Position numbers and translations under genes: made by a program. DNA of 63,923 bases, counting the filler, from Craspedostauros australis (Eukaryota): assembly GCA_030167865.1 (NCBI GenBank). It is 6 parts of 6 records of this genome, joined end to end, with 100 filler letters (N's around TTAATTAATTAA, not from the genome) between each part and the next. Parts side by side here need not be neighbours in the genome. Positions count along the whole stretch, not along the records: positions 35,985 to 62,150 come from JALAGF010005823.1; 5 more parts are not named here. One strand, written 5' to 3'. Shown piece by piece: positions 21 to 52,650 of this stretch; within the stretch, counting starts at the first letter, position 1; each line of letters starts with the position of its first letter. Below the pieces are notes generated by a model. It was not told the origin of the DNA, searched no databases, and worked only from the letters and a program-made list of their open reading frames with translations.

Positions 21-180
21 TGAAGTGCATTTAATGCACTTCAAATGCATTTTTTGCACTCCATTTGCATTTAATGCACTCCAAGTGCATTTAATGCACT
101 TCAAATGCATTTAATGCACTTCAAGTGCATTTTTTGAACCCCAAATGCATTAAATGCACTCCAAGTGCATTAAATGCAAA
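21..180. repeat. 20-bp tandem array, 8 copies, consensus ~YCAARTGCATTTAATGCACT with near-palindromic core GTGCATTWAATGCAC
   Basis: Units read directly at 21, 41, 61 ... 161. Confidence 0.95.
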
Positions 181-9609: not shown

Positions 9610-9761
9610 TTGTATCCTGGGTTTCAAAGATCTCCTTTAATGGTTTGTGCCTGCTCCAAACGTGGTTATGTCCGAAACGTGGTTCAGGCCGATTCGTGGG
9701 AAAACGAGTCATGTGTTCCAGGAAATCCTTCCTTAGCCTAACTGCTAGTTTAGCTCTATTA

Positions 9762-18481: not shown

Positions 18482-18698
18482 CAAACAGGGATACGTGTGA
18501 AACGGTTAAAACGGGGTTAACGTGCGAACACGGGCATCGCCCAACAACAGGAGAACAGTGTACTCNNNNNNNNNNNNNNNNNNNNNNNNNNNNNNNNNNN
18601 NNNNNNNNNNNNNNNATCCTACACGACCCTATAACCCTTATAATCTGAATCCTTTGGGTTTGCAACCCTCAATGACAATGCATGTGTGTGTTAACTTG
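18482..18698 (+). repeat. 5' LTR (contains an N gap)
   Basis: Identical to 24752-24925 where sequenced. Confidence 0.9.
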
Positions 18699-19171
18699 GT
18701 TTATCATTACGCATCCGCTTACGCGGGCCATGCGCAAGCACGCGGGGACCGCCTGAAGAGGCGATGACAATACTGGGACCCCGCTCTGAGGGTGGACCGC
18801 CGTGAGCCGGCACAGCTTGGAATCGTGTTGCATCCCCTTTGACAATGATGTTCTGGTACATATTGGCCGGTGCCAGAGGGATGTACTCCCACCGTTCGCT
18901 TTGGCGTGGTGTGGATGGCAAGACAAGGTGGACGCACCGACCGCAGGCCACGCGGAACCCCTACTGAGACACACGCTCCTACTGAGTGAAAGATCGTGTG
19001 CCTTGTTGCCACATCCGTGCTTCTCAACGTGGGTCGAAATACCGACACACACACACCGAAAACTCACAAGACGAAACACGCTCTGTCCCAGTGGAGGTTT
19101 CTGTCACAATCCAACACCTTGTTGCTTTTTCCTTTTCCCTTTTTGCATACAACAACCGTACGACAGCCAAC

Positions 19172-24580: not shown

Positions 24581-24751
24581 CAGACAGACTGCGCGACAGT
24601 ACCCAAGGATGGTCGGCCACGGAGTCAATCCGTGGTGGATGGGATGAGCGCCCTGTGGTGCCCACGCATGGGGCATGCAGCAGGTACATACCATGTGAAG
24701 CGAAAATGTGACGATCCGACAGTCAGCAGAGCCACAGCGAATCGAGGGGAC

Positions 24752-24925
24752 CAAACAGGGATACGTGTGAAACGGTTAAAACGGGGTTAACGTGCGAACA
24801 CGGGCATCGCCCAACAACAGGAGAACAGTGTACTCTCTGACAATCCTACACGACCCTATAACCCTTATAATCTGAATCCTTTGGGTTTGCAACCCTCAAT
24901 GACAATGCATGTGTGTGTTAACTTG
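24752..24925 (+). repeat. 3' LTR, 174 bp
   Basis: Follows PPT GAGGGGA and matches the 5' LTR. Confidence 0.9.
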
Positions 24926-25276
24926 GAATTACAGTTCGTCCGTTATCCAACATACATACAGTGTCCGTTATGTTGAAACACAAGTATACCATCGTTCGTT
25001 GAATGTTCTNNNNNNNNNNNNNNNNNNNNNNNNNNNNNNNNNNNNNNNNNNNNTTAATTAATTAANNNNNNNNNNNNNNNNNNNNNNNNNNNNNNNNNNN
25101 NNNNNNNNNATTTGTCGTGTTGTCTCCGTGTTATTTTTACTTGCAATTGCATGAGATCATGTCATGCCTCTCTCATGCTCACAGTTCCAAGAAGACAATC
25201 TTGTGAGCTCGACAGCATTCCNNNNNNNNNNNNNNNNNNACAGTAAACAAACACTCTCCTCACCAACAACAACGAC

Positions 25277-27440: not shown

Positions 27441-28360
27441 CTATGATATGTTACATACTCGTACACTAAGAGCACAGTCCACTACTCCATGTACTGCTTC
27501 GGGCTTGCTAGATGGAGCAGATTGGACTTCCTCTCTTCGGGGTGCGTCGCCATTGGACGCCTCTTCGTTGATTGTCACGTCCTCCTTGCCGTCATGTCCG
27601 CATTCGTTCCGCTTGGCCTCCTGTCCTGTTTGTGTTGATCGGATGCTTTGCTCCGTCGCTGCAGAAGGGTCCATCTCTTCGCTGCCATCGTGTGTTGACG
27701 AAGACCCCATTACCTGACTGGGATCATCTTGTGATGAACATGATCGAGTCTTTGCGCTGGTCTCGTCTTGCGGAGTGGGCACCGCAGATGCAGATGCCGT
27801 CTCCGAAATGATGGTTGTTTGCGAAGACTTCTTGGTGCTGGCATCGGCTTCTTTCGTTTGTGCGTTGTCTCTTGCAAGTCCCATGGTGCTGAGAACCCCA
27901 ATGGTGGCCAACGATGCAACAGCCAAGGCCAACAGCTGTGATGAGGTGATGCCCGCCTTCTGCTGACCTTTGCTCTCCTCAGACACCACTGCGCCTTGTT
28001 TTGCCTGTGAGTTTGTGACTGTGGCCGTCGCGGATTGGGCCAGGTTGTCCACGATTCCATGGGATCCATCTTGTGGCACACAATGACATCGCCGCTCTCA
28101 CCATCGTACACCTCAAAGCTCGTGCTGTCGTAGTTCACGAGGTTGATGACTGGTGTTGCACCAGCTGGGTTGCTGGTAGACTTGTCGGCGCCAGTGCTGT
28201 GTGCTGAATCGCGTGATGCAAGGGCGTCGTCTCCGTCACCAGTCCATGGATCCTCGTACGAATGCTTCTCCTCCATGGAGTCGCTGATAACGATCACGCC
28301 ATTGGAATGACTCTGCGATGGTCGATTCTGCTGCAAGGCACGGGAAAAACGTTGAAACAC
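27441..28360 (-). pseudogene. 3' part of an S/T/A/D-rich low-complexity gene, frameshifted; probably continues 32217-34690
   Basis: Overlapping ORFs 27710-28360 and 27441-28079, with the same composition and strand as the fragment on the other side of the array-bounded element. Confidence 0.5.
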
Positions 28361-28510
28361 GACTTAGAGCGTGTTCGACCACTTCGACGATTTCCTTTGA
28401 ATCACTGAAGCGATGTTGAAGTTCGACTCAACTGATTGTTGCATTCGTTGCAGAATAACGTTTATAACGTCAATATGTTTAAAAACCGAACTCCAATGAC
28501 AACAAACTGA

Positions 28511-28706
28511 TTCAATGAAAGTAATGACGTTTCAATGAAAGTAATGACGTTTCAATGAAAGTAATGACGATTCAATGAAAGTAATGACGATTCAATGAAA
28601 GTAATAACGATTCAATGAAAGTAATGACGATTCAATGAAAGTAATGACGTTTCAATGAAAGTAATAGCGTTTCAATGAAAGTAATGACGTTTCAATGAAA
28701 GTAATG
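28511..28706 (+). repeat. 20-bp tandem array, 10 copies, TTCAATGAAAGTAAT plus 5 variable nt
   Basis: Units at 28511, 28531 ... 28691. Confidence 0.97.
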
Positions 28707-28989
28707 TCGGACCACGACTGAACGACGAAAACACGACTCACACGATTTTGTCGAAACTCGACGCCACACCAACCGTACACGATGAATCAGTTTTGTATCG
28801 TTCCAAAACAACAAGAACGTGATGTGCGCGCTGCCTGCATCACTGAATGCAGCGAACGATAACGCTGGTTATACATGTGTTCTTGGTGCAAGTACTACCA
28901 TTGCATACTTTGCACAATTGGCACATTCTCTATTTGGCATTGCTGTGACACAGCACAACCGCAAAGCCAGAGCAAGAGAGACTGCGATC

Positions 28990-31500
28990 TATTATATTAT
29001 ATTATATTATAGTATATTATATCATGTTTGTATGGTATGGCAGAGTAGCTCGCGCTAGTATGTACAAGTGCTCCACAACTATCAGTGCTGCATCAGCAGC
29101 AGTGCCATCGCTGAAGGTATGCAGAGATTTCCCATAATAAGTACTGGCCATCACTTGTGTTTGGGTATGTCTGTCGCCATCCCTCCAAACTGCCACATCT
29201 CCACCACAAGAACTGCACCAGTCTACCTATGCCTCCTGACAATCCATATAGGAGTTGATTGTTGCTTGAACCTGCGGCCGCAGTGAGACCTTGTACATGC
29301 AAGCCATGCAGATGAAGCGGAGTACACCGTTGACCTAATCACAATAATAGCTCAAGGATTATACTCAATTCACATGAGAATGCGCCAACTGCGCTTTTCT
29401 CCTCCTCCTTTCTACTCTTCCACTCACAAAGAGGGGGTACAGAATCTGGTTGCTGCATTGGTGTGGCCGGTGATGCGGTACTGAAAGTTGTGCAGGATGC
29501 AACAGCTGTTGCCATCCAGCTGGTCATCTGTTGGAGCTGACTTGAGTGCCAAAGTGCACAACCATCCATTTACATAGCCCAGTTGATACTTCAACGGTAT
29601 CACCAAGGAAAGGGGGCAGCTGTACCATCCGCACTGTCCCATCCGATGTCCGCTTGCTGTATGCGGCTGTTGATATTGGAGGGAGAGTCCTGCCAACTGC
29701 TGAGCCGTGGCACACCTCTGCTGATCTGTCTTGGCCTCCCCATGATACCAGCGGCGACCAAGGGGTGCATTTTCCAGGCCTTCATTTCTGTCCCATCTCC
29801 ACAAGAACTTCACTCCACGTGGATTGTATGAGCAGGCCTTGGCATAACCACATGTGATTTGCGTACTTGGTCTTTTTGCATGTTGGGCGCCTGTTGCTGG
29901 TCCGTACATGCCACTGTTTCATCCGTTTCCCAGACATAATCTTGCTGTAGACTTTCTTGAAGGTGGTGCATTGTTTGGATGCACTCAACCCGCGCATTGC
30001 AGCCACCATGCAACTTGTTCTTGACTGGCTTTGCGAATGAACCGGCTCCAGAGCAACCTATCCATGAATTGACAATTCCAGAGCTGCCCTGGCACGGTCT
30101 TGTATGTGATGGTAGATAGCTTTGTGTGCAATGATAGCAGGCAATACTCTCTCCATGCACTGCAGACATACAGGCAATGCTTCCTTGTATCTCCATGCAC
30201 CACTAGTGCAAACCTGCCAACATGCCCACCAATATGTTCATGTGCACCCAAGGGTCCTTGACGGGCAGCCTCTCATTGTCCTGGTGCCCTTTGCCATGCC
30301 ATCCAGTAGCTCAAGACTGCAGGTTGCAGGCAATGAAATGAGTAGTGCTCGCTAGATCGCTGTCTGCATCCTCCAGCCTGATAGTGTGCACTGGATCGAG
30401 AACCATAAGCGCTGGTGCATTGTCACAGGCAAGCTGGATGTGTCATTTGATCCCATGGACCGGTTGGCATGCTAGATCCACGCAAATATGCTGTAGATAC
30501 CAGCGAGTTCTGATTGATGCAGTTGCACCAGCTGGCTTCCTCATGGCACCTTGTTCACAAATGTGACTCTGGAGACAGGGTTCAGAAACGGTGGTTGCAT
30601 TTCTGCAGCTGGAGTGCCGATTCCATTTTGGATGACCCACCCCTGCAGGCCACGCATTTCCTGTTGCCAACACTGGTGATGAAGGCTTCCTCTCCACCAG
30701 TGGACACCATTTGTTTGGCCGACCATCATTGGCTGCGCTCGGCGCTGCGGAACAACCAGCTGATGATTGCATTCTTCCTCACTGTTGGCTCGATGCAGTT
30801 CAATATGCAGCCTGGGACCAGCTGATCCCCTTGCCAAGTTTCATGAACTGGCAGTGATGGCTTCACAAGGGTGGTGCCTGTCTGGCGATGATACATGCCT
30901 CCCCTGATCCCTCTGCTATGCGCCCAATACAATGATCTTTGACCCACTTCCCGGACCATCTGGCCATCTTCCAACAAGAGGTAGCCTGGGTGTCTGGAAA
31001 ACAGACTGTATCAGGCCCTCAGCCTAGCTTAGATGTTGTTGATCACATTGTTGGCTCCTGGCCAGGAGATGATAACCAACCACCCTAGTTTCCATTGGGA
31101 TAGCTATCACAATCCGAGCAGCGGCCATTTCAGACTCAAATGTGGTTTGGTGTGCCCTCTGGGATGTAGGACTTGCTGTCATATGGTCATTCCATCTGCA
31201 TTGAGAAGGTCTGACTTCCATATGACTTGCAGGTGCACCAGGCAATGATTGATCATAGCCTCTTGCTTCTGGGAGTATTCAAATAGGAGGATTGCATCCA
31301 TAATGAGTTGGTTGTTCTGTCTTGGCGGTTGGAGAGGGGAAGTGGAGAACTACGTACACATGTCAGCCTGTCATGTATTGTCCTTCATCAGGGTAGACAC
31401 TTTGGTTGTGTGGAGATGCTTCATTCCATTGGGTAGCACGAGCACACCTCTGTCAGCCCTGTCTCAAGCACTGTGGCTTTCACCATGGAGCAGAGAAGCA
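28990..31500 (-). mobile_element. Decayed, 5'-truncated non-LTR retrotransposon (Ambal-like diatom LINE with RNase H)
   Basis: Minus-strand fragments in the expected order: NQLIMDAI...MINHCLVHLQVIWKSDLLNADG (~31330-31180), AGWVIQNG (~30640), ACDNAPAL (~30420), GKRMKQW...RPTC...NHMWLC (~29930-29840), QADIGW...G...W (~29650). (ATTAT)n tract at ~28990-29020 is a possible tail. Boundaries approximate. Confidence 0.7.
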
Positions 31501-31964
31501 TACGATTGATGGAGTAGTAATCCGTTGCTCTAGTTCGCACATCAACCCACAGCCAAGCACCCGTCGCCCAACTCCCATCACACCATTCTGCCTCGCAGCC
31601 AAGTTCTCAAATGGGAGACGGAGAAAAAGAACCAGTCGACGCAATCAACCAAATGGCGAGGACGATCAGCCAAACATGGGTCTTTGTAGCAGCAACAATG
31701 CAAGAAGGACAAGTAGAACTCAAAATGGTAACAATACTATAGCAACAGTTGTACTATGTAAGATATAATATTATACATCTGGAACCCAGCTTCTACTGCT
31801 TGTGGTAATGTTATGGATTGTGTCACACAGTAAGGGCAAGCACTTGTTGTGTGCGTGTTTGCATCACGCGCACGATTTTTTGTGTGTGAACGGAGGTCCA
31901 AACGTGGATTCGTCCAATCGTGAATCAAAAGACTCCCACAAACATTCGATGTCAGTCGTGACGT

Positions 31965-32180
31965 TTCAATGAAAGTAATCACGATTCAATGAAAGTAATC
32001 ACGTTTCAATGAAAGTAATCGGCATTCAATGAAAGTAATCACGTTTCAATGAAAGTAATCGGCATTCAATGATAGTAATCACGATTCAATGAAAGTAATA
32101 GCGTTTCAATGAAAGTAATAGCGTTTCAATGAAAGTAATAGCATTTCAATGAAAGTAATGACGTTTCAATGAAAGTAATA
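31965..32180 (+). repeat. 20-bp tandem array, 11 copies, same unit and same orientation as 28511-28706
   Basis: Units at 31965, 31985 ... 32165. Confidence 0.97.
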
Positions 32181-32216
32181 AAATCGACGTTACCGCCTAT
32201 AACGTCTATTTAACTT

Positions 32217-34690
32217 TCATGGATTGCAACATCGGAGTTGGTCTTGGCTCATCGGTGTCGAGGAGTGTCTCGAACACGGGATTGGTGTGGCGAAGGGCGT
32301 TTGTCCGTTCTCCGGACACACTTTCAACGAATTTCCCGTGACTTGCTGGTGATCATCGTTACCCTCGTTGTCACCGGAGCAGTGGTCATCTTTGTCGTCG
32401 AGCACAATGATCTCTTCGACATTTCACGAGCGGGAGGCGCTCTCTGCTGGGGTTTTTTGCTCGATGGAATAATTCCCAGGTGACGCACCACCCTGGCTTC
32501 CGTGGTCGGTGACATCAATTGGGTCATGTTCAGCCGGAGCACCACCAACATCAGCATTGTCGCAATCCTTTTCTGCATTCATCAACAACTTGGTCATGAT
32601 CGCTGCGCCGACCCCAAGGACAACTGCTGCACCTGCGGCTACTCCAGTCGAGGCGTTCTTGGTGACATCGTCCAATGACGACTTCGCTGAGCTGATCGAC
32701 TTGTGGTATGAGTTACGCTCGATGTGACCAGTCGAAACAGTTGCTGATGCTTCTTGAGCGGCGTCGGCAACATCGTTTGTTGAGGCCGCAGACGCGTTGT
32801 TGGTGCAGCTGCTATCGACAGGATTCGAGTTGGCGCTTGCGCTCGTCACCACGCTGACTGCAGGGCTGCCATCAGCTGTGACTTTGGCTTTGGCTGTGGT
32901 TGTGGTCGTGGTTTTGGCCGCAGCTGCCACAGATGCCGCCGTAACGACTGTTGTGGCCACGCCAATAGCTGCGGTGGTTTTCAATGCGTTGGCGTTGTCG
33001 TCCTTGTTGCTGTTGTCATGTTTCCCGAAGCCGCGATCGCTCTGAGTTGTGGATGGCCTCGATTGGTCTTGGTGCCCAACCAGCACCCCAACCTTTTCCG
33101 AGCCAGAGTCCAACAGGCTGTTCAAGACGGACTCATTGAACGACGAAGGGCGTTCGTTTTCCGCAGAGCTGGAAGACAACTTCCTGGTGGAAGCTGCACC
33201 AGATCTCACCGACCGTTCATTCTCGGAGACGGTGAATTCGGAGGCTGTGGATTGACCGCTGTTCGTTCCTCGCGCAGGCATGAGAACGTCCATGCCCTGG
33301 ACGACTGGGATGTCATTGGATGAACGTACGGTTTCCACAAGGTGGCCGACTATCCCTGGGTTGGCTGCACCGGCGACTAGTTCTTGCTCTTCAGATCCCA
33401 GTTGACATGCGTCATTGCTGGCAGATTCGTCCTTGTTGCTGGTTTCGTATGAACTACCAGCAGCCAGTTTGGCTGCAGCAAGATCCATGATGTCTTCGAG
33501 AGGAGCCGGAGGAGGGCTGCTGGTCTCTGTGAGAGGTTCGATGCCTTCTCTCTGCATCTGCAAGNGAATCATTGCTGCAATCTTCGCCTCGTAGTCAGAT
33601 GATGTCGAAGAAGAGAGGTCAACGGCACGGACCTTGCCATTCTTGACACCTTCGGAACGATTTGTGTAGACATCGCTGGATGCCAGGCTGGATGTTCCAC
33701 TTGCGCTGCTCTCTGCCGACGGACGCGACTGCTTGCTGCCACCGGCGTTCTGCGTTGTTTCTGTTGCTGGTCCACCGACGGATGATGATCTGTCTCGTGT
33801 GTTGGAAGATGATGCAGCTGCTGCTGCCACGGCCGCTGCAGTGCCAATTGCGGCTGCTCCGACCACGGCCCCAGAAATGAAAATACCGTAGCTGGTGCTG
33901 CCATTGGAACGGTTGGAGCGTGACTCTCCGTTCGAGTACGTCGAATCGTCGTAGTATACCGATCCGCTTGACAANNNNNNNNNNNNNNNNNNNNNNNNNN
34001 NNNNNNNNNNNNNNNNNNNNNNNNNNNNNNNNNNNNNNNNNNNGTGGAATTGTTGCGTGCTGGACGAGTCTGATTCGTTGAAGCGGACCGACTTTTGCGA
34101 TCCTTCATCTATGACCGAAACGGCCCGCACTTCGATGTTGTCGGTCTGTTCTCCACTGTCGGTAGCTTGCGTCATGGTCACAGCTGGGGGATCGGCCTTT
34201 CGTGCCAATTTCTCGGCCTGCTGTTGATCGTTCGACTGCTGGTCGGCCTCGGACCCAGAAGACAAGGATGCGGAACGCGCTGTTTGTGCCGGTTGCCGCT
34301 TATTTGGAGCAAGCACACGGTTCGCAACGTATGCTCCCGCTGGAAGATCGATGCCTGTTGCAGAGGCTGTTGGCGACGCGATTCNNNNNNNNNNNNNNNN
34401 NNNNNNNNGTCGCTGGTTGGAGACGCGATCCGTGACGTCCATGGATGTGGTCTGACCATCATGATTGCTGTGAATGCTTCAGATGGTGCTCTTTTCGACG
34501 CCGGCACTCGCATTCTTGCTTTGTCCAATCCTGGATGGTGGTTCCTTGCGAAGCAAATTGTTGTAGAACGTTGGCATCGACTGAGAGGCAGCAATTGCAC
34601 CGAAGGCCGCCACCGCCTGCTTACCACGCATCTTTCTGACCGAAGTAGGTGCAGGGATGACAGATACCGAACCTTCCGCCTCTTCCCTGG
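32217..34690 (-). pseudogene. Large low-complexity S/A/T-rich gene with an in-frame TGA at 32424-32426; cut by an LTR at 34691 and by the array element at ~32217
   Basis: ORF 32424-34442 continues in frame into ORF 32217-32405. No recognisable domain. Confidence 0.55.
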
Positions 34691-35884
34691 TGTTGGAAAT
34701 CCGGGGTTAGGTATTAGATTAATCTGTTATCAATCTGTACCAATTTAGAACTGTGAGAACAAACTCCTTGACTCTCCAATTCCAGTTCAGCAGCAAGTGT
34801 AATCTGTAGCAGTTCACCATGATCATGCACTTGTTCATGGTTGCTTTCATCTGCTTCATCAGCTTGCTCTCATGCTCTCTTCTGCAGGTTCATCATGCAT
34901 CATCGTGGTGATTGGCATCTTCTACATTCGAGCAGCATCTCTCATAGACGCACAGGTACCTTCAGCATGGGTCTCAGTCTGATCGATCCCACTTGACCNN
35001 NNNNNNNNNNNNNNNNNNNNNNNNNNNNNNNNNNNNNNNNNNNNNNNNGTATTCCACCTGCGCCATCATCACATACTCACCGGTCATGTTCAATGCATGT
35101 CGCGTCGTCATTCGTGCTCTTGAGCGGATAGGGGCATCGCCTCCGTTTCGCTTTCTCAGAGAAGCGATCCCTTGTCCGTCGATGCGCGTCGACATGTCTG
35201 ATACATATCGACAGTTTCGCCCATAGTCTTGGTTCATGTGCGATTACATCCCTAGAGGTCGATCCATAGGTTCGCCCTCATTACAGCGGTGGTACATGGA
35301 TAGGCTCCATGGTGGGACATGANNNNNNNNNNNNNNNNNNNNNNNNNNNNNNNNNNNNNNNNNNNNNNNNNNNNNNNNNNNNNNNNNNNNNNNNNNNNNN
35401 NNNNNNGTCGAGTTGTGAAGATATTATTGGGAGGTGCGGCAATCATGGGTATCTTGGTAAAAGCGTACCCCCGATTCCTGACACCCTTCCATTGTCGCGT
35501 CGACAATATATCGTTCTTGACTCTGCTCTCTCTTACCCTTCATCACCACCATCCCACTCTCCGTTTCATTAGTCTAATGCTGACCTTGGCTGGATGATAT
35601 CGCCCTTGTGTCTGTCGTAGATCTCCTTCTTCGTGTTCTTGGTGAACCCGTCTGCGATGTTGTCNNNNNNNNNNNNNNNNNNNNNNNNNNNNNNNNNNNN
35701 NNNNNNNNNTTCTCGAATGAAGTGATGTCGTATGTCGATGTGTCTGGTTCGGGCGGATGTGGATGGGTTGGAAGCGATGAAGATTGCTCCCACGTTGTCA
35801 ACCATTACGTCTGCTGGTCTGTGCATCTCCAACCCGATGTCTCTCATCAGTTGGGTGAGGAAGCGGATCTCCTTTCCGGCCTCC
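34691..35884 (-). mobile_element. 3' end of a copia element (family B): RNase H tail, PPT and 3' LTR 34691-35483
   Basis: VDNVGAIFIA, RTRHIDIRHHFIRE and NIADGFTKN. Minus-strand PPT GGAAGGG directly before TGTCAGGAATC...GATTTCCAACA. Confidence 0.88.
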
Positions 35885-37882
35885 NNNNNNNNNNNNNNNN
35901 NNNNNNNNNNNNNNNNNNNNNNNNNNNNTTAATTAATTAANNNNNNNNNNNNNNNNNNNNNNNNNNNNNNNNNNNNNNNNNNNNCTTGGGTCTTTCTTCA
36001 TCTCTCCTGGTCTTGCCTAATCTTGATCTCTGTTTGATCACATATGGATTGATCCGTCTACGTCGACGGGGTGCATGCATCACCCCTGACGATGTTGTTC
36101 TGGATCCTAAGTATTGTTGCCACGTGCTCGATGATGCACTCGGCATGGCTAGACAGGTCAGNGTACCATGACTAANANANAATCTCGATTCCGAGGATCA
36201 CAATGACCGATCCTCTGACGTCATACGATGATGTCAGTGCCTACGTCATGTTCGATGACCGTAGTGACCAAATATCAATCGTGTATCAAGACTCACTCGA
36301 CTATACTCTCAAATCGAGTCGAATCAAAAAATAGTGAATCACGTTTCAGTCATGGGAGATGGGTACCTAATTTCGATCTAGATGTTGATACAATGCGTCT
36401 TCGAGGACTACCCCGAGGGGGATCCTCACGCGGCGTGGAACGTTCTCGCGGAGAAGTTCCGGCCATCCGACGCAGCAACAAAGATCAAACTCAAGCGTCA
36501 ATTCAACAACGAAAAGATGAAGAGAGACTCGGACCCCGACATCTACATTACGCGACTCGAGCTTTTATGCTCACGTCTCCACGATGTCGGATACACGATC
36601 AGTGAAGAAGAGATGATCATGCAGATTCTCAGCACGGTAAGCAACGAGTACAAGACTCACATCGTGAACTTCCATCACCAACTCACGTTCAATCCAGATG
36701 TAGTCACCATCAACGCAATCAGAGGAGTACTCCGAACTGCACACGCCACTCATCAAGGAGGAAAGGCGTACGTCGACGATTTCCAAGACAACACGAAGAG
36801 CAACGACACCGGCTTCACTAGCACCGGTAACTTCAAGGGGACCTGCCACAACTGTGGTATGTATGGTCATAGATCTGCGGATTGCCCCGAACGAAAGAGA
36901 GCGAACAACAAGAAAAACAACAACAAGATGAACGGAAAGCGCAACAACAAGAACAAAGGAAGCGGCTTCAACGGTAAGTGTAACTACTGTGGCATCTTCG
37001 GACACCGCGAGGCGGAGTGCCGAAAGAAGAAGTTCAACGAGAAGAAGAAGGCCGACGAGCAGGCCAACACAACAATGGAAGGACACGACAAGAGCGGCCA
37101 CGAGATGGTACTCTCAGCCAGAGACGCGCCGCTCTGCATGGAGGTGTCCAACAACTACATCGAAGACTCCTTCTTCGATAACTTCGTGTGCGTCGGAAGT
37201 GACGACGAAGTACAGGACGATGAGATCATCCCGGAGTGGCTCAACGACAAGCCAATCATCCACGAGGTGGATCCAAGACGCGAAGTGAGCTATGAATGCT
37301 GCTTCAACGCGAACGACCTGATCGGTCCATACGGTGACGGAGCTGTGATGGGCACTGAGGCCATTGACATCGAAGTCGAAGCGGCCATGAACGCAGAGGA
37401 TGCCGACGCCAACGAGAACGGCACGGATCAAGACAACAACGAGAACGTCTCCGGAGACGAGACGAACGGTGGCAACGTGCTGCCTCCTCCAGCAGCGGGG
37501 AACAACAGAACGGGCATCTTCGACGAAGATGACAGCGATGAAACAGAAGATCATCCAGACGACAGCTTCAACCCAAACGAGCGTGTCGTTTACCCGACGG
37601 ACATCGACTTCCCACCATTCCCGAATCCAAACAACCGGAATGAGCTTCATCGAATCGATACGATCCCATACGCGACAGCAACAGCGATGAGAATGCAGAA
37701 GCATCTTATCTTCGATGCCGTGTCGGCAGTGGGAATGCGAAAGTACCCAGAAATGGAAAGAGGGGTACTCAAGGCAATATGGGTGAACATGATGGGATCC
37801 ATCCTATCCGAGAACTTCAGATCAATCGAAGAGATTCCGCCAACGGGGCGATCATCAATCAGCTATTGGAAGCGGCGGATAC

Positions 37883-38415
37883 TGCCTATTGCCGGCGGAC
37901 GATTGATGTTCATATGATTGCTAATGGTAATGAATGTTGTTGTTGATGATGTAAGATCAAAATTATGATTACTTGAGCTATCTCTCTCCCTTCTGCAGTC
38001 TGCACCTCTTGTCAATCGTATTCATTCATTTCGAGATCATGTTGTTTGTGCCTTATCCCAAACCTGCGCCACTCTCTGTTTGACTTCTCGTTTTGGATGG
38101 AGGTCAGGGTTTGGATGACGATATTCATATGCAAATATTTTTACGATTGAATCTTGACCAATCATTCTTCCAATTGGAGCTTTGACTAATCAGACTTCCA
38201 GTTGGAACCTTGACTCATCCGACTTCAGTTTGAGTCTTGACTAATCTGATTTCAATTTTGATTCACGACTCGTCAGTCTTGATTGACTGTTAACACGACT
38301 CGTAGGTGTGACTGGCAATGTGATTGCTTGGGTGACTTATTGATGACTAGTATCTATTGTGCACAAGTCTAGGTCTTGTGTCATCAATAGTCTATCTAGC
38401 CAGCCGTCTAGGGCA
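37883..38415. mobile_element. 533-bp solo LTR inserted into the copia polyprotein gene
   Basis: TGCC...GGCA termini with 5-bp TSD GATAC (37878-82 and 38416-20); AT-rich interior with degenerate TTGAC repeats. Confidence 0.85.
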
Positions 38416-41400
38416 GATACGGAGACAATCCCAAAGATGGACTTGCATTATACCCTCGGAAGATGCATGCATGTGCTCCTGCGTGAGCGACCACGAGTCA
38501 CACCCTACGATTCAGTCACCGGAACTCATTTGAACAGCACGGTTCCATCGGAGTACGCGGATCCGTACGAAGATAGTGAAGACGATGAAGACATGAACGA
38601 CAACCACAATCCCTACAACGAAGATGGGATTCATGAGGACGAAGAGGACGACCACATCATGGACGACATGGCCGCAGCCGCCATGGAGCAGCTCCACAAG
38701 ATGAGCACCAAGTACAAGGACAAGGTCAACAAGGACACCTGGCTCGCCGACAGCGGAGCTTCGTGTCACATCGTCAATTCGGACGCCGCCCTTTTCAGCG
38801 TGCGGCACATCAAGTCATTCGTCCAAGTGGGAGACAGCTCGAAGCTGGACTCTCCCAAGATGGGATCCATCCGCAAAAAGGTCAAGCAAAGAGACAACAC
38901 TGGCCACATCATCCGGCTTGATGATGTGAAGTACGCACCCAAGATGGCGGTGAACCTTTTCTCTACGAACAAGGCTCTGTACAACGGCTACCAGATGGGT
39001 AGCAACGGAATTCTGATGGACATCATCAACGGATCCGGAACAAAGATCGTGTTTGATCGAGTCTTCCCCACATCCAACGGATTCATCACGGGAGTACAGA
39101 TGTATCCCATCATGCCAACCAACAACGACATGGCTTCGACAGCCATCACCAAGAATCCATCCAAGGAGGTAAGCGTGGCGAACTTCCATAGAATGCTCGG
39201 CCACGCGCCACTCGAGACCATGAAGCGGACTGCCGCTCAATACGGATGGAAAATCATTGGCGAGATGCTGGTGTGTCGCGACTGCGCGGTTGCGAACGCG
39301 AGAGTGAAAAACATCTCGAAGACCAGAATCCCGAGAGCTACTCGCCGCGGCGAGCGCTTCTTCATTGACATTAGTTACACTAAACACATAAGCTTCAGAG
39401 ATAAATGCTACTGGACCCTGATCGTGGACGACTGCATGGACTACTGCTGGAGTTTCTTTCTCAAGAACAAAAGCGACCAACCAGGATACATCAAACGATT
39501 CGTGCAGACGATCAAGTCACAGACAGGTGATCAACAGATCATCTTCCGAGGTGACAACAGCGGAGAGAACAAATCCACGCAGGATACTCTCATCGATGCA
39601 GGACTGAATGTGAAATTCGAGTTCACGGCATCCAACACGCCGCAACAGAACGGTAGAGTAGAACGCAAGTTCGCGTACCTCTACACCAAGATCCGCTCCA
39701 TGCTCAATGGAGCACAACTCGATGAAGAGTATAGGCATGGCCTGTGGGTAGCAGCTGCAAGCACTGCCACCGCCATTGCCGACATCACTGTAGCGAAGAA
39801 TCAGAAGGAGTCACCACATCGCCAATTCTTCGGCAACAATCCACCATATGCAGACACACTCGGCACATTCGGAGAGGTGGGTGTTGTGAAGACTACCTAC
39901 GGTGGGATCACCGCCAAACTCAAGAATAGAGGAGAAGAGATGGTGTTCATTGGATGTGCACACCAACACGCATCAGGGGTCTACAACATGTACAGACCAT
40001 CGACCAAATCACTGGTCTGCTCTCGCGACAACAAGTGGCTCAACCAATCATACGGACAGTTTTGTGGCTGGGCACCAGCACCAAACATATCCAACAAAAC
40101 AGGAACAACAGATGCAGAAGGTTTCACAACCATCGGATGGAAGGGAGCAACGCCAAGGACGACAACGCGTCAAGCGGCTGAGACAAGGAGAGTATCCTTT
40201 GCCGACAGGAACCAATATCATATCCTATCAGACGACGATGAGGAGGATGATGAAGATGATGGAGTAGTAACCCAACTAATCAACAACGACGAAGATCGGA
40301 GCGAATCCGACCCCGAGGATGACGAGGTCCTACCATCTGGCGACGAAGCCGACGATGACACAGGCGTCACTCCTCCGAACACACCAGCGAGGTATACACA
40401 TGACACACCATCAAGACCTCCACCAAGCAAACCAAGCAAGCGTGACATAGCTAGAAAGGAGAGAATCCGACGTCACGAAGCACGAGGCAGGAAGGGAGAA
40501 GCTAATCCCAAGCCGACTGCAGGGAAGAGTATTCCCAGAGCTCTGCGTGAGCTCGCAGACTTCAACAAACGAGGTCGAAAGGAGGAAGGTTATGAGAACG
40601 AATCATCATCCAACAAAGATAGTGACGAACTCAGCCACGAGATAACCGACGAATCCAACAACGAGGAAATCATGGACGAAGAAGAAGAGATCGAGATCAC
40701 TCACCATAGCACAACAGGACTATACGGAATGAATACAATCATCACCGAGTCACCGGCGATCGATATCGGATTGTCGATACAGGACGAGAACAAGGAACCA
40801 GGGAAGCACATCGAACCTACAACGTTCGATGGAGCTTTCAATCATCCAGATCCCATCCATCGAAAGGGATATCGAGCAGCCATCAAGAAGGAATTCGACT
40901 CCATGGATACACGCAAGGTGTACAGCAAGATCAAACGAGACGCCATCCCACGCGGCCGCAGATGCTGCAAATGTAAATGGGTCTTCAAGCTGAAACGCGA
41001 CGGCACACATCGAGCGCGGCTCGTTGCATGTGGCTATTCACAAGTCGCAGGAGTAGACTTCCAAGAGCATTACTCACCCGTCATCCAAGACGTGACCTAC
41101 AGAGTCATGATGGTGATCATGCTGATCAAGAAGATGGACTGCGCACTCGTCGATGTCGTAACGGCATTCCTACATGGAGACCTCGACGAGGAGATCTACA
41201 TGAACTGNCCCAANGGGATGGATCATCAANCAGACGAAGCCCTGACCCTACACAAGCCAATCTACGGGCTTGTGCAGAGCGCCAGGCAATGGTTCAAGAT
41301 GTTGGTATCGACCCTCAAGAACATCAACTTCGAACAGAGCGCGGCAGACCCGTGCTTGTTCTACAGGAAGACGAACGAGGGAAGTATGATCGTGGCCATT

Positions 41401-42414
41401 TACGTGGACGACTGCTTCTGCTGCGGAGACTCCAAGGCATTGGAGACATTCCTGAAGGACATCCAAGGCAGCAAATTCAAGGTAACAATCGAGCGCGGAC
41501 TTGGAGACTACCTCAGCTGCAACATTGAACTGAACCATGACAAGACTAGAGCAACATTGCGTCAACCACATCTCATCCGACATCTCATCGAAGAGTTTGG
41601 AACCAAAGTTGAGAAGATGCAACGCTATGCAACACCGGGAACCCCCGGTCAGATCATCGTACGACCATCCGAAGACAACGGACTACAGAAGGTCGGACCG
41701 GAAGATCATGCCGAATACCGCCGAGGCGTCGGCATGCTACTCTTCCTCATCAAGCACTCGCGACCGGATATCGCAAACCCTGTGAGGAGGTATTGATCGG
41801 GCCAACGAAGGCCGCAATGAAGGAGATGTATCGGATCATCAAATACGTGATCGATACAAAGGACTATGGATTGAAGATCTATCCAGCACGTCCAGACAAT
41901 GACAGCTGGGACATGGAGCTCTTCTGCAATAGCGAATATGCAGGAGACAAGAACACAAGAATCAGCGTAGGAGGGTTCATCCTATACCTGTGCAAGGTAC
42001 CAATCCTTTGGCGATCCAAGGCACAGAAGGCCGTCACACTCAGCTCATCCGAAGCAGAATACATTGCCCTTTCCGAAGCGGCAAAGGAGATCTTCTTCGT
42101 CATGCAGCTACTCGAAAGTGTGGGCGTTCCAGTGAAGACACCGATCAAGGTCCGTGTGGACAACATCGGAGCGATCTTCATCGCCANNNNNNNNNNNNNN
42201 NNNNNNNNNNNNNNNNNNNNNNNNNNNNNNNNNNNNNNNNNNNNNNNNNNNNNNNNNNNNNNNNNNNNNNNNNNNNNNNNNNNNNNNNNNNNNNNNNNNN
42301 NNNNNNNNNNNNNNNNNNNNNNNNNNNNNNNNAGGCCGACTTGCAACGTGAACATGAGAAGTCGTACCTTGACACATCGAGAACATTCGAATGACCGAAT
42401 GCACACAGGAAGGG

Positions 42415-42980
42415 TGCCGAGATATACATGTGAGTATATGTCAAGATGTACGTGTATATGTGCATCGTTCACCCGTTATTCTCTCATACGCACTTGAACG
42501 GTATAACTACATTCGTGTCGATAGTATACTGTGATTCGTCAGAATTACAGTAGAAATGGAAGACACGGAAATGAGCAGAATTTCTGGAGGAAATTTGCAA
42601 TCGACGATTTCTGAGAGAATTAGAACATCGTCCGTCCATCCATCAATGGTACCAAGAGAATCTCGAGGTACTTCCCAACTAAACCTCAGATGACGATATC
42701 ATCTGACAGTCCACTGCATCACCAATGGAACATGACATCTGGAGAGCAGAAGGACGCCTACTGACGTTGACAGGATGTCATCGTGTCACCATGTTGACAT
42801 CTGTCTCCAGGTCAGAGCAGGAGGCGAAGATCCGATGATCGAAGAGCATCAAGATCATGGATACGAGAGGTGAAGTTCAAATGGTGAGTACTCATGGAGT
42901 AGGAACCAGTAGTAAATGAACGGAGTGTCGGTGCGGAGTACGCATCGAACATGGAGTATCGTGTAGTACGAGAACACGAT

Positions 42981-43028
<48 letters not shown>

Positions 43029-43266
43029 CGAAGAGTAGCGAGAGAGGATCTCGCACACCGACTCATAGTCGGTTCATCATCAAGGAACGGAGGACGTTTC
43101 AGAGAGTCAATCTACGAAACAGATTGAAGCGCCGAGAGCATCGGGCAAGAGAACGGGCATACACCGAGAGGATCGGAGTAGCCAAGTAATGAAATAGCAA
43201 ACGAACGACTATCAACCAACACCATCTTCCACGATCGTAGGCTTCCAATCACGGAACTTGCCAACA
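42415..43266 (+). repeat. 3' LTR of family A copia (852 bp) containing a (GA)n microsatellite at ~42984-43025
   Basis: TG...CA termini, preceded by PPT; homologous copies at 8461 and 51169. Confidence 0.88.
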
Positions 43267-43601
43267 GACACTGTGGCACTGCGGACTTGGAGCAGCATCA
43301 GAAACATCATCACAGCTGCACTCATTACAGCATCAATTTGCGCACAAAAATTCGCATCAGCTCATACTGCAACACCTGGAACACCATTCGCAATCGCAGC
43401 AACGGCCACACAACAACAACAGCCAGGCAACAGCATCTCCAGCATCGTGATCACCAATGGCATTGGTACACAGGCCTTTGTACACCAGCATTCGTAGCAG
43501 TCTGTGCGACACCACCTGCAACTGCATTGGCAAAGGCAACAGTTCGACTCCAGCATCAGCATCAGCATCATCAGCAGCACCAGTGTCACGAAGAAAGCAA
43601 G

Positions 43602-44873
43602 ATGCCGTTCACATGGTCTGGTGCCAAGAAGATATTGGAGGAGGAGCTCAAGGCAGGGGCCATCACGAAAGAGATGAAGCCCAAGGAAATCTATGAAAGG
43701 CATGCTGACTTCTCCAACATGAAGTACACCAACTTCCGCAACAACTTGAATCGCCTCCGAAAAAAGTGGAAGAAGCACGAGGAAGATGCCATGGAAGCAG
43801 AGAATGCACTCATTGCTTTCCGCAAAATGGCAATTACGTCGATGCCAACAGGTGTTGGAAATCCGGGGTAGTAGTATAGTCTAATGCTTATTAAACTGTA
43901 CCGTTTTAGAACTGTGAGAACAACATCTTCATTTCTTGCTTCCTCGAAGAGATTGCTCATGATAATAGCAGTAGCTTCCTGTTGTTGCTCCTGTATTCAT
44001 CATTGCAGATCTCCTCCATTGCTCACATCTCATCGTGCATTTCAGGCGCAAATCATCATACATGTTCATGATGATTCCCTTCTACACTCGTACTGTACAT
44101 GCGTGCGGATGTCATGTTTCACTCTCTTCCGATCACACATCCGTTACCTGCTCAGTGCACTCTCCCATGTCGTTCACTCACTTTTCTCACATGTTCACCA
44201 ATGATCACCCTTTGGTCAGAACATGATGTTCTGGCACGATTGATCCAATCCTTCGATGATGTTCCGATCCGCGCTATGTTCTCCTTCGCTGGTTCTCCGC
44301 CATTCACACGATCATGTTCTGAGTTCCGAGCGACTAAGCGTTGTTAGCGCTTTCCCATAGATGTTTGGTCCACCGGTTAACTTCCGTGTTCAAGAACACT
44401 TCGGTGTTCCAGTCTCCCTTTTGCATCCATTGTTCGCCACGCCTGTCCGTTAGTCCTCACGAACACATCATGTCATTCGTCCGTCCGTTGTCCGTCATAC
44501 TCTTGACACACAGAGGAGGATGGCTCACAATCGACTTGGGAGTGAGTCCGACTTTGATAGTTCGGCTTGTCTATATTTGGTATTATGAAAGGGGCGGCAA
44601 TCTAGGATATAGCGACATAATCGCACCCTCGATTCCTGACAAACAGGCAAGCTGAAATGGGATGGTTCTGAAGCTCAGAACGCGATGAGAAGAGACTTCA
44701 AAGATGAACTCTTGAAGTCTCTTACACCCAAGCAACTATATCAAAAGCGGCCATGCTATCAGGAATTCCCTATGGAGCAATTTCGGAAGCACTTTCATGC
44801 AGCAAAACGATCGAAATACGAGTCTTTGTATTGGCAGCAACGCAGAAAGGAAAATCAGAATAGAAAGCGCTAA
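43602..44873 (+). pseudogene. 158-aa basic protein with two internal repeats (W.xA+..L/M...+PK..Y.+..F..FR), interrupted by a solo LTR
   Basis: Joining 43602-43852 to 44648-44873 gives one open frame: MPFTWSGAKKILEEELKAG...MKPKEIYERHADFSNMKYTNFRNNL...PTGKLKWDGSEAQNAMRRDFKDE...LTPKQLYQKRPCYQEFPMEQFRKHF...KR*. Confidence 0.85.
43853..44641 (-). mobile_element. 789-bp solo LTR related to family B
   Basis: Same termini as 34691-35483 (TGTTGGAAATCCGGGG...CGATTCCTGACA); flanked by AACAGG on both sides. Confidence 0.9.
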
Positions 44874-45096
44874 TATAACTATAGCAACAGTCGTCCTGTG
44901 GTGGATGTATCTCGAATCCTGCTTCTACTGGTTGTGGCACGTTTATTGATTGTGTCACATAGCATGGGCAAGAATTTGTTGTTGTGAGCACGTTTGGCAC
45001 ATGATGCGCCTGATTTCGTCGTTGCGCGAATGGAGGTTCAAACGTGGTAGGATCGGCTCATGCGTCCAGACACGAATCAAAGGACCCCAGCGAGTA

Positions 45097-45230
45097 TTCA
45101 ATGAAACTAATCCAGTTTCAATGAAACTAACCTAGTTTCAATGAATCTAACCTCGGTTCAATGAAACTAACCTCGGTTCAATGAAACTAATCCGCTTTCA
45201 ATGAAACTAGTCTACTTTCAATGAAACTAG
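45097..45230 (+). repeat. 20-bp tandem array, 7 copies, TTCAATGAAACTAR plus 6 variable nt
   Basis: Units at 45097, 45117 ... 45217. Confidence 0.95.
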
Positions 45231-45269
45231 AGATACCTAAGATAACGTATATAACGTCCGTGTAACGTT

Positions 45270-45931
45270 CCATGGATGAAGACTCCAGAGTTGGATTTGA
45301 CTTGTCCGCATCGGAGACAGTGTCGAACACGGGATGGGTGGGGCGGAGGACAGGCGTCCACTCCCCAGGCACAGTTTCAACGAATTTACCGTTCCTTGCT
45401 GATCAGCCACACCCAATAACCTCCAAAACAAATAATAAAGGGGAAGGAAGCAGCCACTTCATGGAAGGTGTTCGTTGGGTTCGACGAGGGTGGACTTTGT
45501 GAGGGTCGATCACTCGGTATAATCGAGGGTAGATCACTTGATGTATCCGGGGGTAGATCACTTGGTATATCCGAGGGCAGACCACTCGGTATATCTGAGG
45601 GTAGATCACTCGGTATATCTGTGGGTGTGAAGGTTGGATTTTGTGATGGCCGATCACTGGGGCCATTTGTGGTGGGCTGAGTACTACTGCTGCCCTCTAT
45701 GTTTCTGTTGCTGCTGTTCTCGCCACTGGGGGGGAACGCTACGCCTACTGCAATGGCACCAGCTACACCGACGACCAGGAACACCACCGTAACAACACCT
45801 TTCCAGCTCCATCCTGCCCTCCGAGAAAATGACTTAGGATTCTCATCATCTCTACCGAAGACCCCTGCAACTGCATCTGGAAGATAGATTACATTCTCTG
45901 TGTTATCATCACATGCTGTCTCTTCATCCAT
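45270..45931 (-). pseudogene. Single-pass membrane protein with Pro-Ser (PSDxPS) 12-bp repeats; degenerate 3' part abuts the array element end
   Basis: TM segment GVVTVVFLVVGVAGAIAVGVAF followed by PSDLPSDIPS repeats; the frame breaks downstream. Confidence 0.6.
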
Positions 45932-47057
45932 TGTTGGGTATGGATTTGGCTGCGGCTGCGGCTGTGTAGGTGAGTTTTGCGTCGGTCACACCAGTGACGA
46001 CGATGTGAATGGCACCTGCGCAACTTGGGCTCTCTCTCTGTTTCTCTCAAGATCGTAATTGGTGGTGGTCACGGGAATAGGTTGTTGATGTATTGTGAGG
46101 GTGAGGAAATAAGATGCTCCAAACGATTTCAGGCATGCCAACAAGATCAATGTTGGGCGAGGCAGAGAGAGAAACCTCGCTTCTCTGCAGCAACAATCTC
46201 TTGATCGCACTCATCAGTGAGGTCGTGGTGGCATTTGCACCACGTTTGTCATTTGCATCCGTGACGATGATAGTGGGCAGCTGAGGTGTCAACCATTGGT
46301 AGTGGTGCCCTTTCGTACCGTTTCGTACGCATTGGTGCTGTATCGTCCCCCATCGCACACGCTGTCCTCGTACCACGCACTCTGACACTTATCCTTCTAC
46401 TTCCACAGATGTTCTTTACTTTCACGCACACGGACCAGAACAGCCAAAGCGGTAATACTCGTCTGCTTCTTTGTTTGCATGCTATGATCGCATGCAAGGT
46501 CGCACGCTCGGAAGGCGATGGGCGGAGTGCGAACTACCAACAATACATCAAGGCAGGAGTCGTCAATGCAAACAGAGAAACAGAAGGCAAGGCAGACACA
46601 TCCGCCCCTATTATCGCTTTCTAGGTCGCACCCTCGGAAGGCTATGGGTCAAGCACGAGTAGCAGAAGAGGTCGGTCGGAAGGCAATGCCATGCGAGCAC
46701 ACACCTCTCTACTGTACACTCTAATCGTATCCACCAGCGACCCCCAAAGGCTCCTTCTGAGCGTTGCGTCGATGACCCTTCCAACATGTGCTATGCGACC
46801 ATGTCGGTGACGATGAGAACGATTTCCGAAGAAAGTGAGATGATATATTTGATTTACCGTATATCCCACCCACGACAACAAACAGTCCGACCTTCAGCCG
46901 TCTCATCGACAAAGAAACCAAACGAAAGTCACCAAATTGAGTCTCCGCAAATTGGCGCCAAACAAAACAACACATCGAAACAGACGTGCAGTCACAAGTC
47001 CGTGATTAGACCTCTCTGGACTGCTGAAGGATCGTGCGCGGATACGGCGATGCCAAC

Positions 47058-51168: not shown

Positions 51169-52650
51169 TGTCGAGATGTACATGCGTGTGCATGTCAAGA
51201 TGTACGGGCATATGTGCATAATTCCCCCGTTATTCTCTTATACATGTACGGACGGTAAAACTACATTCGTGTCAATAGTATGCTGTGATTTGTCAGAATC
51301 ACAGTGGATATGGGACACCCGAAAATGAGCAGAATTTCTGGAGGAAATTTGCAATCAACAATTTCTGAGAGAATCAGGAACATCGTCCGTCCATCCATCA
51401 ATGAACACAGTTGAGATTCAATGAGGGACAGACTACTACCGGACACGGTGTCAACCAGATGGGAGAAATTCTTGTTTTGGTGCGAAACCTTCCGACTTGA
51501 TCGACCACCAAATCTTTTCTCCTCCTTTCTCTCCTCCACTCACGAATCCATCATGACTCAAACATGACCGACCTGATTCACACCTCGCCTTGGGAACTAT
51601 ATGCTCCTCAGATCCTTTTACTACAATACACCTCGATTCCCTCCATGCTGATGACTACTGCACTACTGCCGTAGTCTTGACGCGTGTATCCAACTTGCTT
51701 CAACTCAAGTGATGGAATCCGAGGGTCAGCTCCAACCACAGCCACTGCTTCATGATCGTCACTACCAGGTGTCATGACCTACACTGCAGTGTGTCTACAT
51801 GTATGGAGAGCAAAGCACTGTAATGATCGCCTACCCCGTAGCACTGAACCAAGTACATCAGTGCAGGGTCTCGCCAAGTTGTGTGGCATCGTTTCTTCAC
51901 CCTACCAACAACATAAGCTAACACATAATTAACAGACAAGGATTAGCTACAAAGCACTCTTCTTCTCATTGTTACAGTAACAACTCTTCAATCAGTACAC
52001 CTCTCTTGAACTGCACCACATGGCTATCTTGAAGCCGGCAGATTCACAAGACATCCTCCACCAATTCGCGCCAACTATGCCCGAATCCTAACTAGGGGCA
52101 AGACTGTGTGCTACTGTGGATGATGTATGCTTTGGCAAATGGAATTGAAAGAAATGGAGATGTTGTACTCCCAGTTCCAAATATGCAATAACATGAATAG
52201 GTAACCAGAGACTACTACTAGAGACTGGGTACCCTGGATTTCCAACACACACAAGCATGAGATGATGACGACTGACATCAACACCGAAGTTGTCATCACC
52301 ACTTCGACAGCTGGCTATTTCAGAACAAGAAGGCAAAGATTCGATGACCAAGGGATCAACGAGATCTTGGAGGTGCAACATGAAGTTCAGATGAGACATT
52401 GACGAGCACACGTGAAGCAACGAATCGAGACGAGAGAGGACGATCGACTGCGTGTTGAATACGCAGTAGTACCACAAGGAAGAGAGAGAGAAACAGAGAA
52501 ACAAACGAAGACGAAACAGCGAGAGAGCATCTTGCACCGACTAATGGTCGGGTATCGAGAACTGTCAGACAACATAGTAATGAAATAGCCAGCAAACGGT
52601 AACAACACCACAGTCTACAATAGGAGTATCCGTGCGCTCACCTTGCCAAC
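51169..52650 (+). mobile_element. Family A-related solo LTR with a probable nested family B-like solo LTR (51449-52247)
   Basis: 51169-51402 matches the start of 42415; ends CTTGCCAAC. The inner segment runs TGTCA...CCCTGGATTTCCAACA (~799 bp) with degenerate flanks CACGG/CACAA. Confidence 0.7.

Follow-up and report, generated by a model that had tools for sequence, protein, structure and literature searches.

The sequence analysed here, referred to as the window, is a stretch of 63,923 nucleotides from Craspedostauros australis (GenBank assembly GCA_030167865.1), which is eukaryotic-looking and rich in transposons, with assembly gaps. Between positions 43602 and 44873 it holds two open coding segments separated by a long insert, and the question raised by this locus is what kind of gene the two segments make up. 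The reading we favour is that the 158-aa ORF obtained by joining them is probably the accessory (ORF1-type, non-catalytic) gene of a two-gene PIF/Harbinger (PHIS) transposon, broken by an LTR, and that its product, here called the helper, would bind the tandem arrays near the element ends.

A coding sequence split in two

The features of the split gene, and of a second LTR related to its insert, are the following.

43602..43852, plus strand: helper gene part 1, with the ATG, the first Trp-initiated repeat, the inter-repeat linker helix and the left AACAGG (43847-43852); profile score 89.7 bits
43853..44641, no strand assigned: 789-bp insert with the features of a solo LTR of a copia-type family (TG..CA ends), at the junction of linker and repeat 2; a second copy exists, and a 6-bp AACAGG direct repeat flanks the insert
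44642..44873, plus strand: helper gene part 2, with the right AACAGG (44642-44647), the second Trp-initiated repeat, a basic tail and the stop codon (44871-44873); profile score 83 bits, model pLDDT 92.1
34691..35476, no strand assigned: second LTR of the same family as 43853-44641, adjoining ORF 35569-35928 on the minus strand, the C-terminal end of a copia-like pol

From the ATG at 43602 the frame is open to 43850, followed by two bases (43851-43852), and it resumes at 44648 to reach the stop at 44871-44873. Deletion of 43853-44641 together with one AACAGG joins 83 + 1 + 74 codons into a frame of 158 codons with no stop or frameshift, so the arithmetic of the initial annotation was right. 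As it now stands the frame ends six codons inside the LTR, giving a 90-aa product that carries repeat 1 only. Profile searches mapped repeat 1 to 43545-43778. The two halves are both basic (pI 9.6 and 10.2) and show a weak likeness to each other, with 21% identity over 48 aa (E 0.001 in a single comparison). A scan of the window with the family profile detected this one helper gene copy and no others.

A family of Trp-initiated repeat proteins

An exhaustive phmmer search of 1.84 billion representative proteins with half 1 retrieved 145 proteins at E<=1e-3, 11 at E<=1e-10 and none at E<=1e-30; two of the 145 (P0135 and P0145, both long) appear unrelated by eye. The similarity of the two Trp-initiated repeats, claimed from the window alone, was borne out by this set, since 116 of the 145 homologues of half 1 also match half 2, in order. 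The best case is the 170-aa protein P0006, in which residues 3-75 correspond to half 1 and residues 83-151 to half 2. Most of the homologues measure 150-300 aa and match in two or three stretches. When 58 two-repeat homologues, whose median pI is 9.58, are aligned with it, the window protein retains 21 of the 26 columns conserved at >=80%, and one of the five missed columns is an alignment slip at the first Trp. Because both halves match homologues in order and the conserved columns are kept, the joined ORF is a canonical full-length member of a real protein family. The 158-aa protein is therefore the product of a real gene, interrupted by an insertion.

The helper belongs to no described protein family. 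None of 60 family members matched any Pfam family at E<=0.01, neither half of the window protein has a Pfam match, and the Myb/SANT/MADF models found nothing in the family even at E<=1-10. Comparison of the family profile with PDB sequences gave no match at E<0.2 (two glucanase rows at E 0.22 were the only ones), a word-based protein search with half 1 gave none among proteins of near or longer lengths, and the ESM Atlas returned a best score of only 0.77, which is uninformative. A SAP domain was found in two of 25 relatives (P0150 and P0156), one as an N-terminal and the other as a C-terminal fusion. Helpers carry two or three repeats and, in a single case (L007), five in a row; one clade (L034, L038, L042, L022 and L033) is distinguished by helpers of 393-414 aa that carry three repeats behind an acidic N-terminus.

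The insert is a solo LTR by its sequence

The genomic context of the family was obtained by scanning JGI metagenome contigs with the motif [VI]FRKHI[YH]Q, taken from six family members, which yielded 60 loci representing 48 non-redundant groups. The last two repeats lie 76-97 nt apart in 55 of the 60 loci, and the remaining five have a single repeat. In the window gene this spacing is 874 nt, that is, 85 + 789.

The insert begins with TGTTGG and ends with CTGACA, and AACAGG stands on either side of it (43847-43852 and 44642-44647). Compared with the LTR at 34691-35476, the insert has some 75 bp in common at the 5' end and some 60 bp at the 3' end, among them TGTTGGAAATCCGGGG and CGATTCCTGACA, and the interiors of the two copies are strongly diverged. 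The second copy lies directly downstream (minus strand) of ORF 35569-35928, whose C-terminal motif we take to be the C-terminus of a copia-type pol. TG..CA ends, a short flanking duplication and a sister LTR joined to the end of a copia-like pol are the marks of Ty1/copia solo LTRs; the insert differs from these in its 6-bp duplication, where 5 bp is usual for copia elements, and in the strong divergence between the interiors of its two copies.

It is highly unlikely that the insert acts as an intron and that the gene still yields the full 158-aa protein. In favour of an intron, the 789+6 bp also read as GT..AG from 43852 to 44646, with CAG|GTGTTG and ACAAACAG|G at equivalent points, splicing there restores the frame exactly, and both halves of the gene are still stop-free; but a GT..AG notation is available because AACAGG is duplicated, no related locus is interrupted at that point, and the sequence itself is that of an LTR with a second copy in the window. 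The second LTR copy, its pol neighbour and the uninterrupted spacing in relatives mark the gap as an insertion and not a conserved intron. Judged on these features, the insert is a solo LTR that cut the helper gene just after the inter-repeat linker.

Other retrotransposon sequences surround the gene. To its left lies a copia interior with gag (36382-37917) and pol (38347-41796), adjoined by a dispersed repeat at 42403-43266 that ends 336 bp upstream of the helper ATG. This repeat, of up to about 860 bp and with 84-96% identity between copies, is found again at 8461-9622 (inverted) and 51169-51403, and may be the LTR of the adjoining copia element or belong to another transposon. A full-length copia-type retrotransposon at 18482-24926, with two identical 84-bp LTR blocks and a 1308-aa pol ORF containing RVT_2, is probably a recent insertion. 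Runs of N occur at 34980-36180, with the spacer TTAATTAATTAA between them at about 35930; the assembly is thus broken at this point, and the sequences on both sides may not be adjacent in the genome.

Two element copies in the window

The features that define the element are listed below.

28331..32348, plus strand: copy B, a complete non-coding derivative of 4,018 bp, with terminal inverted repeats (TIRs) at 28331-28357 and 32322-32348 and arrays at 28511-28706 and 31961-32179 in direct orientation
44814..45401, plus strand: right-end module of the gene-bearing copy A, about 70% identical to 31672-32348
45097..45229, plus strand: subterminal array of copy A, 6.7 units of 20 bp, each unit holding the 17-bp palindrome TAGTTTCA-A-TGAAACTA
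45375..45401, minus strand: right TIR of copy A, CAGCAAGGAACGGTAAATTCGTTGAAA, found by pattern match, with the CWGCAAG terminus common to related loci

With up to three mismatches, the terminus CAGCAAGNNACGGNAAATTCGTTGAAA matches the window three times, at 28331-28357 (plus), 32322-32348 (minus) and 45375-45401 (minus), against an expectation of 0.00 from 100 shuffles. These three matches define two element copies in the window. The TIRs of copy B agree at 24 of 27 positions, and this copy contains no ORF longer than 164 aa. Copy A is represented by its right end, comprising the helper gene, the array and the TIR; a search of the window with the terminus pattern did not find its left end.

The right-hand 680 bp of copy B are about 70% identical to 44814-45401. 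The block common to both copies starts within the final ~55 nt of the helper ORF, position 44814 matching 31672, so that from 31672 onwards copy B carries a decayed relic of the end of the helper gene, just before its right array. The initial annotation had placed the stop codon a few bases before a conserved subterminal module. This is accurate for the sharply conserved motif TATAGCAACAG, which starts about 6 bp past the stop, but not for the common block, which reaches back into the coding sequence.

A CTG stands at each end of copy B, in direct orientation (28331-28333 and 32346-32348), and the right end of copy A has one too (45399-45401), which may be a target-site duplication. Classical PIF/Harbinger elements have a 3-bp TWA duplication. 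The CTG flanks depart from it and fit CWG, a duplication that, without an empty site, is inseparable from bases of the TIR itself, because CWG is self-complementary except at its centre.

Within the 20-bp unit of copy A, a palindrome arm of >=8 bp arose in 2 of 1000 shuffles. The 17-bp palindrome would suit a protein with two like modules, or a dimer; the initial annotation had suggested that the two domains of the protein may match the 2 x 10-bp structure of the unit. At the edge of the window (26-178) there is another 20-bp array of 7.7 units, TGCATTTAATGCACTCCAAA, with a palindromic core, which may be the subterminal array of a further element lying mostly outside the window.

Two neighbouring ORFs were also inspected. 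A 684-aa ORF beside copy B (32424-34478), with no Pfam family and no relative in the related loci, was taken as unrelated. On the other side of the helper gene, a 199-aa ORF on the minus strand (45386-45985), also with no Pfam family, converges on the element end; a 24-bp tandem repeat in it (45500-45626) encodes an 8-residue peptide repeat.

Ends and arrays in related loci

The co-occurrence of homologues with arrays, put forward as a check of the initial annotation, was found, for short-unit arrays, in 26 of the 48 groups. The periods are mostly 10-12 bp or multiples, as determined with Tandem Repeats Finder in counts that have no proper background for array density. More weight falls on position, since the arrays lie between terminus and genes, with one unit at both ends. 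In L033, a perfect 57-nt inverted repeat (57/57; 408-464 and 8005-8061) encloses the helper and the transposase, with GGCAATATTGCC arrays inside it at both ends. Similarly, arrays of one unit flank the gene pair on both sides in L038 (TGCGTCACGA) and L005 (TTAGTCAACA). The array-bounded unit of L038 also contains two further long ORFs (4845-6137 and 6592-7632) without a Pfam match.

The CWGCAAG(A) terminus was found outside the arrays in L016/L027, L037, L021, L022, L033, L034, L038, L041, L057 and L014, and at the right ends of L045 and L025; this makes at least 12 loci, and each of the three element ends in the window has it as well. Local alignment gave low scores and no convincing TIRs for L038, L005, L034 and L027. 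Palindromes do not characterise the arrays in general: in 34 arrays the longest arm averaged 3.03, and in shuffles 2.96. Nearly all loci encode two repeats irrespective of the array period.

The transposase partner

In the longest loci the family gene adjoins an ORF for a DDE_Tnp_4 (PIF/Harbinger) transposase. An iterated profile built from one such transposase detected homologues in 21 of the 60 loci, which fall into 19 of the 48 groups. Where at least one flank is >=2.5 kb long, 12 of 18 groups have such a homologue; among those with shorter flanks, 7 of 30 do. The profile detected none in the other six long-flank groups, nor in 29 groups overall, the contigs being mostly short. The Pfam model DDE_Tnp_4 scored above its cut-off in L038, L034, L048, L014, L008 and L060 and below it in L005, L042, L022 and L033, and found no match in L027, L003 or one half of the split ORF of L033. 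The helper gene and the gene for a transposase of 407-440 aa are arranged tail to tail in L034, L038 and L042, and in L022 and L033 both genes are on the plus strand. The family is thus linked to transposases, termini and arrays.

In agreement with the initial annotation, in which the catalytic partner was not visible, profile and Pfam searches of the window ORFs found no transposase of the helper's lineage. The window does contain a 444-aa ORF on the minus strand (15693-17027) with a clear DDE_Tnp_4 match (E 1.3e-19), and the ORFs beside it have no Myb-like or other Pfam match. This ORF was rejected as the partner of the helper, as it belongs to a different, unrelated Harbinger-type lineage (hhalign probability 2.2%).

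A contact between the two proteins was predicted for the L034 pair. The complex of transposase residues 130-440 with helper residues 100-393 scored 0.61, compared with 0.17 for the best of three controls; the mark used for this score is reached by 51 of 78 solved complexes and by 2 of 108 mismatched pairs, in a calibration made mostly on microbes. The runs share at least 23% of their contacts, and the partner was modelled with a pLDDT of 45-52, its own fold being uncertain. The confident interface on the helper consists of residues 257-276, the conserved helix between the last two repeats, in which K257, R258, E265, E266 and D272 are invariant in the alignment. The model supports a contact of the helper with the transposase through the inter-repeat linker.

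The corresponding helix of the window protein lies within the stretch HEEDAMEAENALIAFRKM and ends a few residues before the LTR insertion point. Insertion just past this helix would therefore have cut repeat 1 and the putative docking helix off from repeat 2.

Predicted fold of the repeats

The repeats had been described as helical, and the models agree. The AlphaFold2 model of P0006, made with 60 aligned sequences, is all-helical and confident (pLDDT 97.0, pTM 0.65), with two modules that each consist of a helix, a helix, a short helix and a long helix. Repeat 2 of the window protein itself was also modelled as all-helical (pLDDT 92.1). The comparison with known structures that had been proposed alongside the modelling yielded less: a Foldseek search of the PDB gave no match at E<=0.001 with the two-repeat model, nor any at E<=10 with repeat 2 by itself.

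Further comparisons were made with VIA in exhaustive mode, for which Z values of 5-6.4 are common among helical proteins and lie below the level that the tool itself treats as meaningful. The rows for the two-repeat model included 4fqg_B, a tandem of FF domains (Z 6.4, with an rmsd of 14.7 over 103 residues), 2kiq, a single FF domain (Z 6.3, rmsd 1.8 over 52 residues), and another FF row, 2k85 (Z 5.3), as well as 6p5a_B, a helical portion of the P-element transposase (Z 6.3), and 3ted_A, the DNA-binding domain of Chd1 (Z 5.9). Repeat 2 alone matched a DNA-bound HD-ZIP homeodomain (9lpe_B, Z 6.2, rmsd 2.9 over 68 residues), and about 28 of its best 50 rows, judged by their titles, were DNA-bound homeodomains or Myb/SANT/GARP domains, the SANT, GARP and homeodomain rows having Z values of 4.3-6.2.

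The modelled helper is therefore a tandem of three-helix modules that resemble FF, homeodomain and Myb/SANT folds in a generic way, at Z 5-6.4. It resembles the tandem FF domains of TCERG1/CA150 and Prp40 in the order helix, helix, short helix, long helix and in a third helix that runs towards the next repeat, but differs from them in Z values of just 5-6.4 and in the lack of a Pfam FF match. FF domains bind phosphopeptides and proteins, not DNA. The predicted fold of the helper is compatible with DNA binding.

Discussion

The accessory-gene reading is supported because genes of this family lie beside DDE_Tnp_4 transposases inside units with conserved termini and arrays of one unit. As regards membership in PIF/Harbinger (PHIS), the DDE_Tnp_4 transposase is present in related elements (19 of 48 groups) and absent from the window's own copies; TIRs are present, with 24 of 27 positions in copy B and 57 of 57 in L033; and a second gene of the Myb/SANT/MADF type was not found at the sequence level (0 of 60 in Pfam). 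This divides the initial annotation, which had seen in the ORF an accessory protein like the Myb-like one of Harbinger elements: the accessory role is upheld by the position beside DDE_Tnp_4 within termini and arrays and by the modelled transposase contact, but the Myb likeness finds no match among the 60 members.

Two-gene Harbingers are known; to our knowledge, bench evidence for how the second protein works exists for very few of them. In the part of PMC9710019 available to us, PIF elements are described as encoding a second, Myb-like protein, and that of Harbinger3_DR from zebrafish as binding a 9-bp subterminal motif and interacting with the transposase. Compared with this ORF1 protein, the helper is likewise encoded by a second, non-catalytic gene in a DDE_Tnp_4 transposon, often tail to tail with the transposase gene, a layout also mentioned for Harbinger elements of a brown alga (a stramenopile) in the accessible part of PMC12477816. 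In length the long helpers (393-414 aa) are comparable to it, both systems have short motifs repeated towards the element ends, and a transposase contact, here a predicted one, is common to both. The helper differs in having no Myb/SANT/MADF match and two to three (once five) tandem Trp-initiated repeats, in the short forms of only 150-190 aa compared with the 300-400 aa quoted for PIF ORF1, and in subterminal motifs that form regular tandem arrays.

Two PHIS groups resemble the element in single traits, as far as the accessible part of Han et al. (2015, PMC4482050) describes them. NuwaI has CWG duplications, TIRs starting with GGG and a Myb/SANT second ORF; the CTG flanks of copy B, in direct orientation, would fit its CWG duplication, but the GGG start and the Myb/SANT ORF set it apart. 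Pangu has ANT duplications and a second ORF without a known motif, resembling the helper in the latter and not in the former. Full-text literature searches turned up no description of a repeat protein of this kind acting as a Harbinger helper, and the family tables of PMC4482050 might list such elements.

The two other explanations of the gene place its function elsewhere. One keeps it within the transposon and takes the helper as an FF-like adaptor between proteins, serving for example in the nuclear import, stabilisation or regulation of the transposase and not in DNA binding; recognition of the arrays would then fall to a helix-turn-helix in the transposase itself or to a host factor. This agrees with the FF domains (4fqg_B, 2kiq, 2k85) that head the structural matches of repeat 1 and of the tandem as a whole, with the complex model that puts a helper helix on the transposase, with the lack of a sequence match to any DNA-binding family, and with a weak HTH_Tnp_4 match in one transposase fragment (15.8 bits against a cut-off of 27). 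We nevertheless consider it unlikely, given that about 28 of the best 50 rows for repeat 2 are DNA-bound homeodomains or Myb/SANT/GARP domains, that the proteins are strongly basic, that a SAP domain was added in 2 of 25 relatives, and that in one bench-tested PIF element the second protein binds a subterminal motif (according to the part of PMC9710019 available to us).

The other explanation is a normal host gene, one that encodes a member of a lineage-specific family of nuclear proteins and lies near repeats by coincidence. It could account for the single copy in the window and for the 29 of 48 groups without a transposase, on mostly short contigs, and the SAP-bearing relatives could be domesticated genes. 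It is made very improbable by the 19 of 48 independent groups that carry one transposase lineage within a few kb, by the conserved termini and arrays that bracket both genes, and by the non-coding copy B, which keeps a relic of the gene's 3' end at the matching place.

Under the favoured accessory-gene reading, the lineage would be characterised by CWG-CAAG(A) termini, short-unit arrays directly inward of both ends (with units of about 10-12 bp or a multiple of that), a DDE_Tnp_4 transposase, and a helper made of two or three Trp-initiated three-helix repeats and a basic tail. By analogy with Harbinger3_DR, the helix bundles of the helper would bind the array motifs specific to their element, the conserved helix between the last two repeats would dock the transposase, and the helper would in this way bring the transposase to both element ends. 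A broader proposition, which we put forward tentatively and with some doubt, is that a lineage of Harbinger elements in microbial eukaryotes replaced its Myb-like helper, or let it diverge beyond recognition, so that a repeat protein reads the arrays and a linker helix docks the transposase.

The annotation of the window that results comprises one broken helper gene and one solo LTR, together with one element that is complete but non-coding and one fragment of a right end. The family counts 145 clusters at 50% identity without a Pfam match, and small basic proteins of this sort in protist genomes and metagenomes can now be annotated as transposon genes. What is gained is a large helper family with a confident fold model and a clear anatomy of terminus, arrays, helper gene and transposase, in which a short conserved helix can be named as the likely transposase-docking site according to the complex model. 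Such elements also lend themselves, as a simple model, to tests of how a helper directs its transposase to the ends of an element. If the proposed mechanism is true, the combination of repeats and linker would represent a new and compact means of directing a DDE transposase to selected DNA, and each family would have a private array "address" that decides which autonomous copy moves which non-coding derivative.
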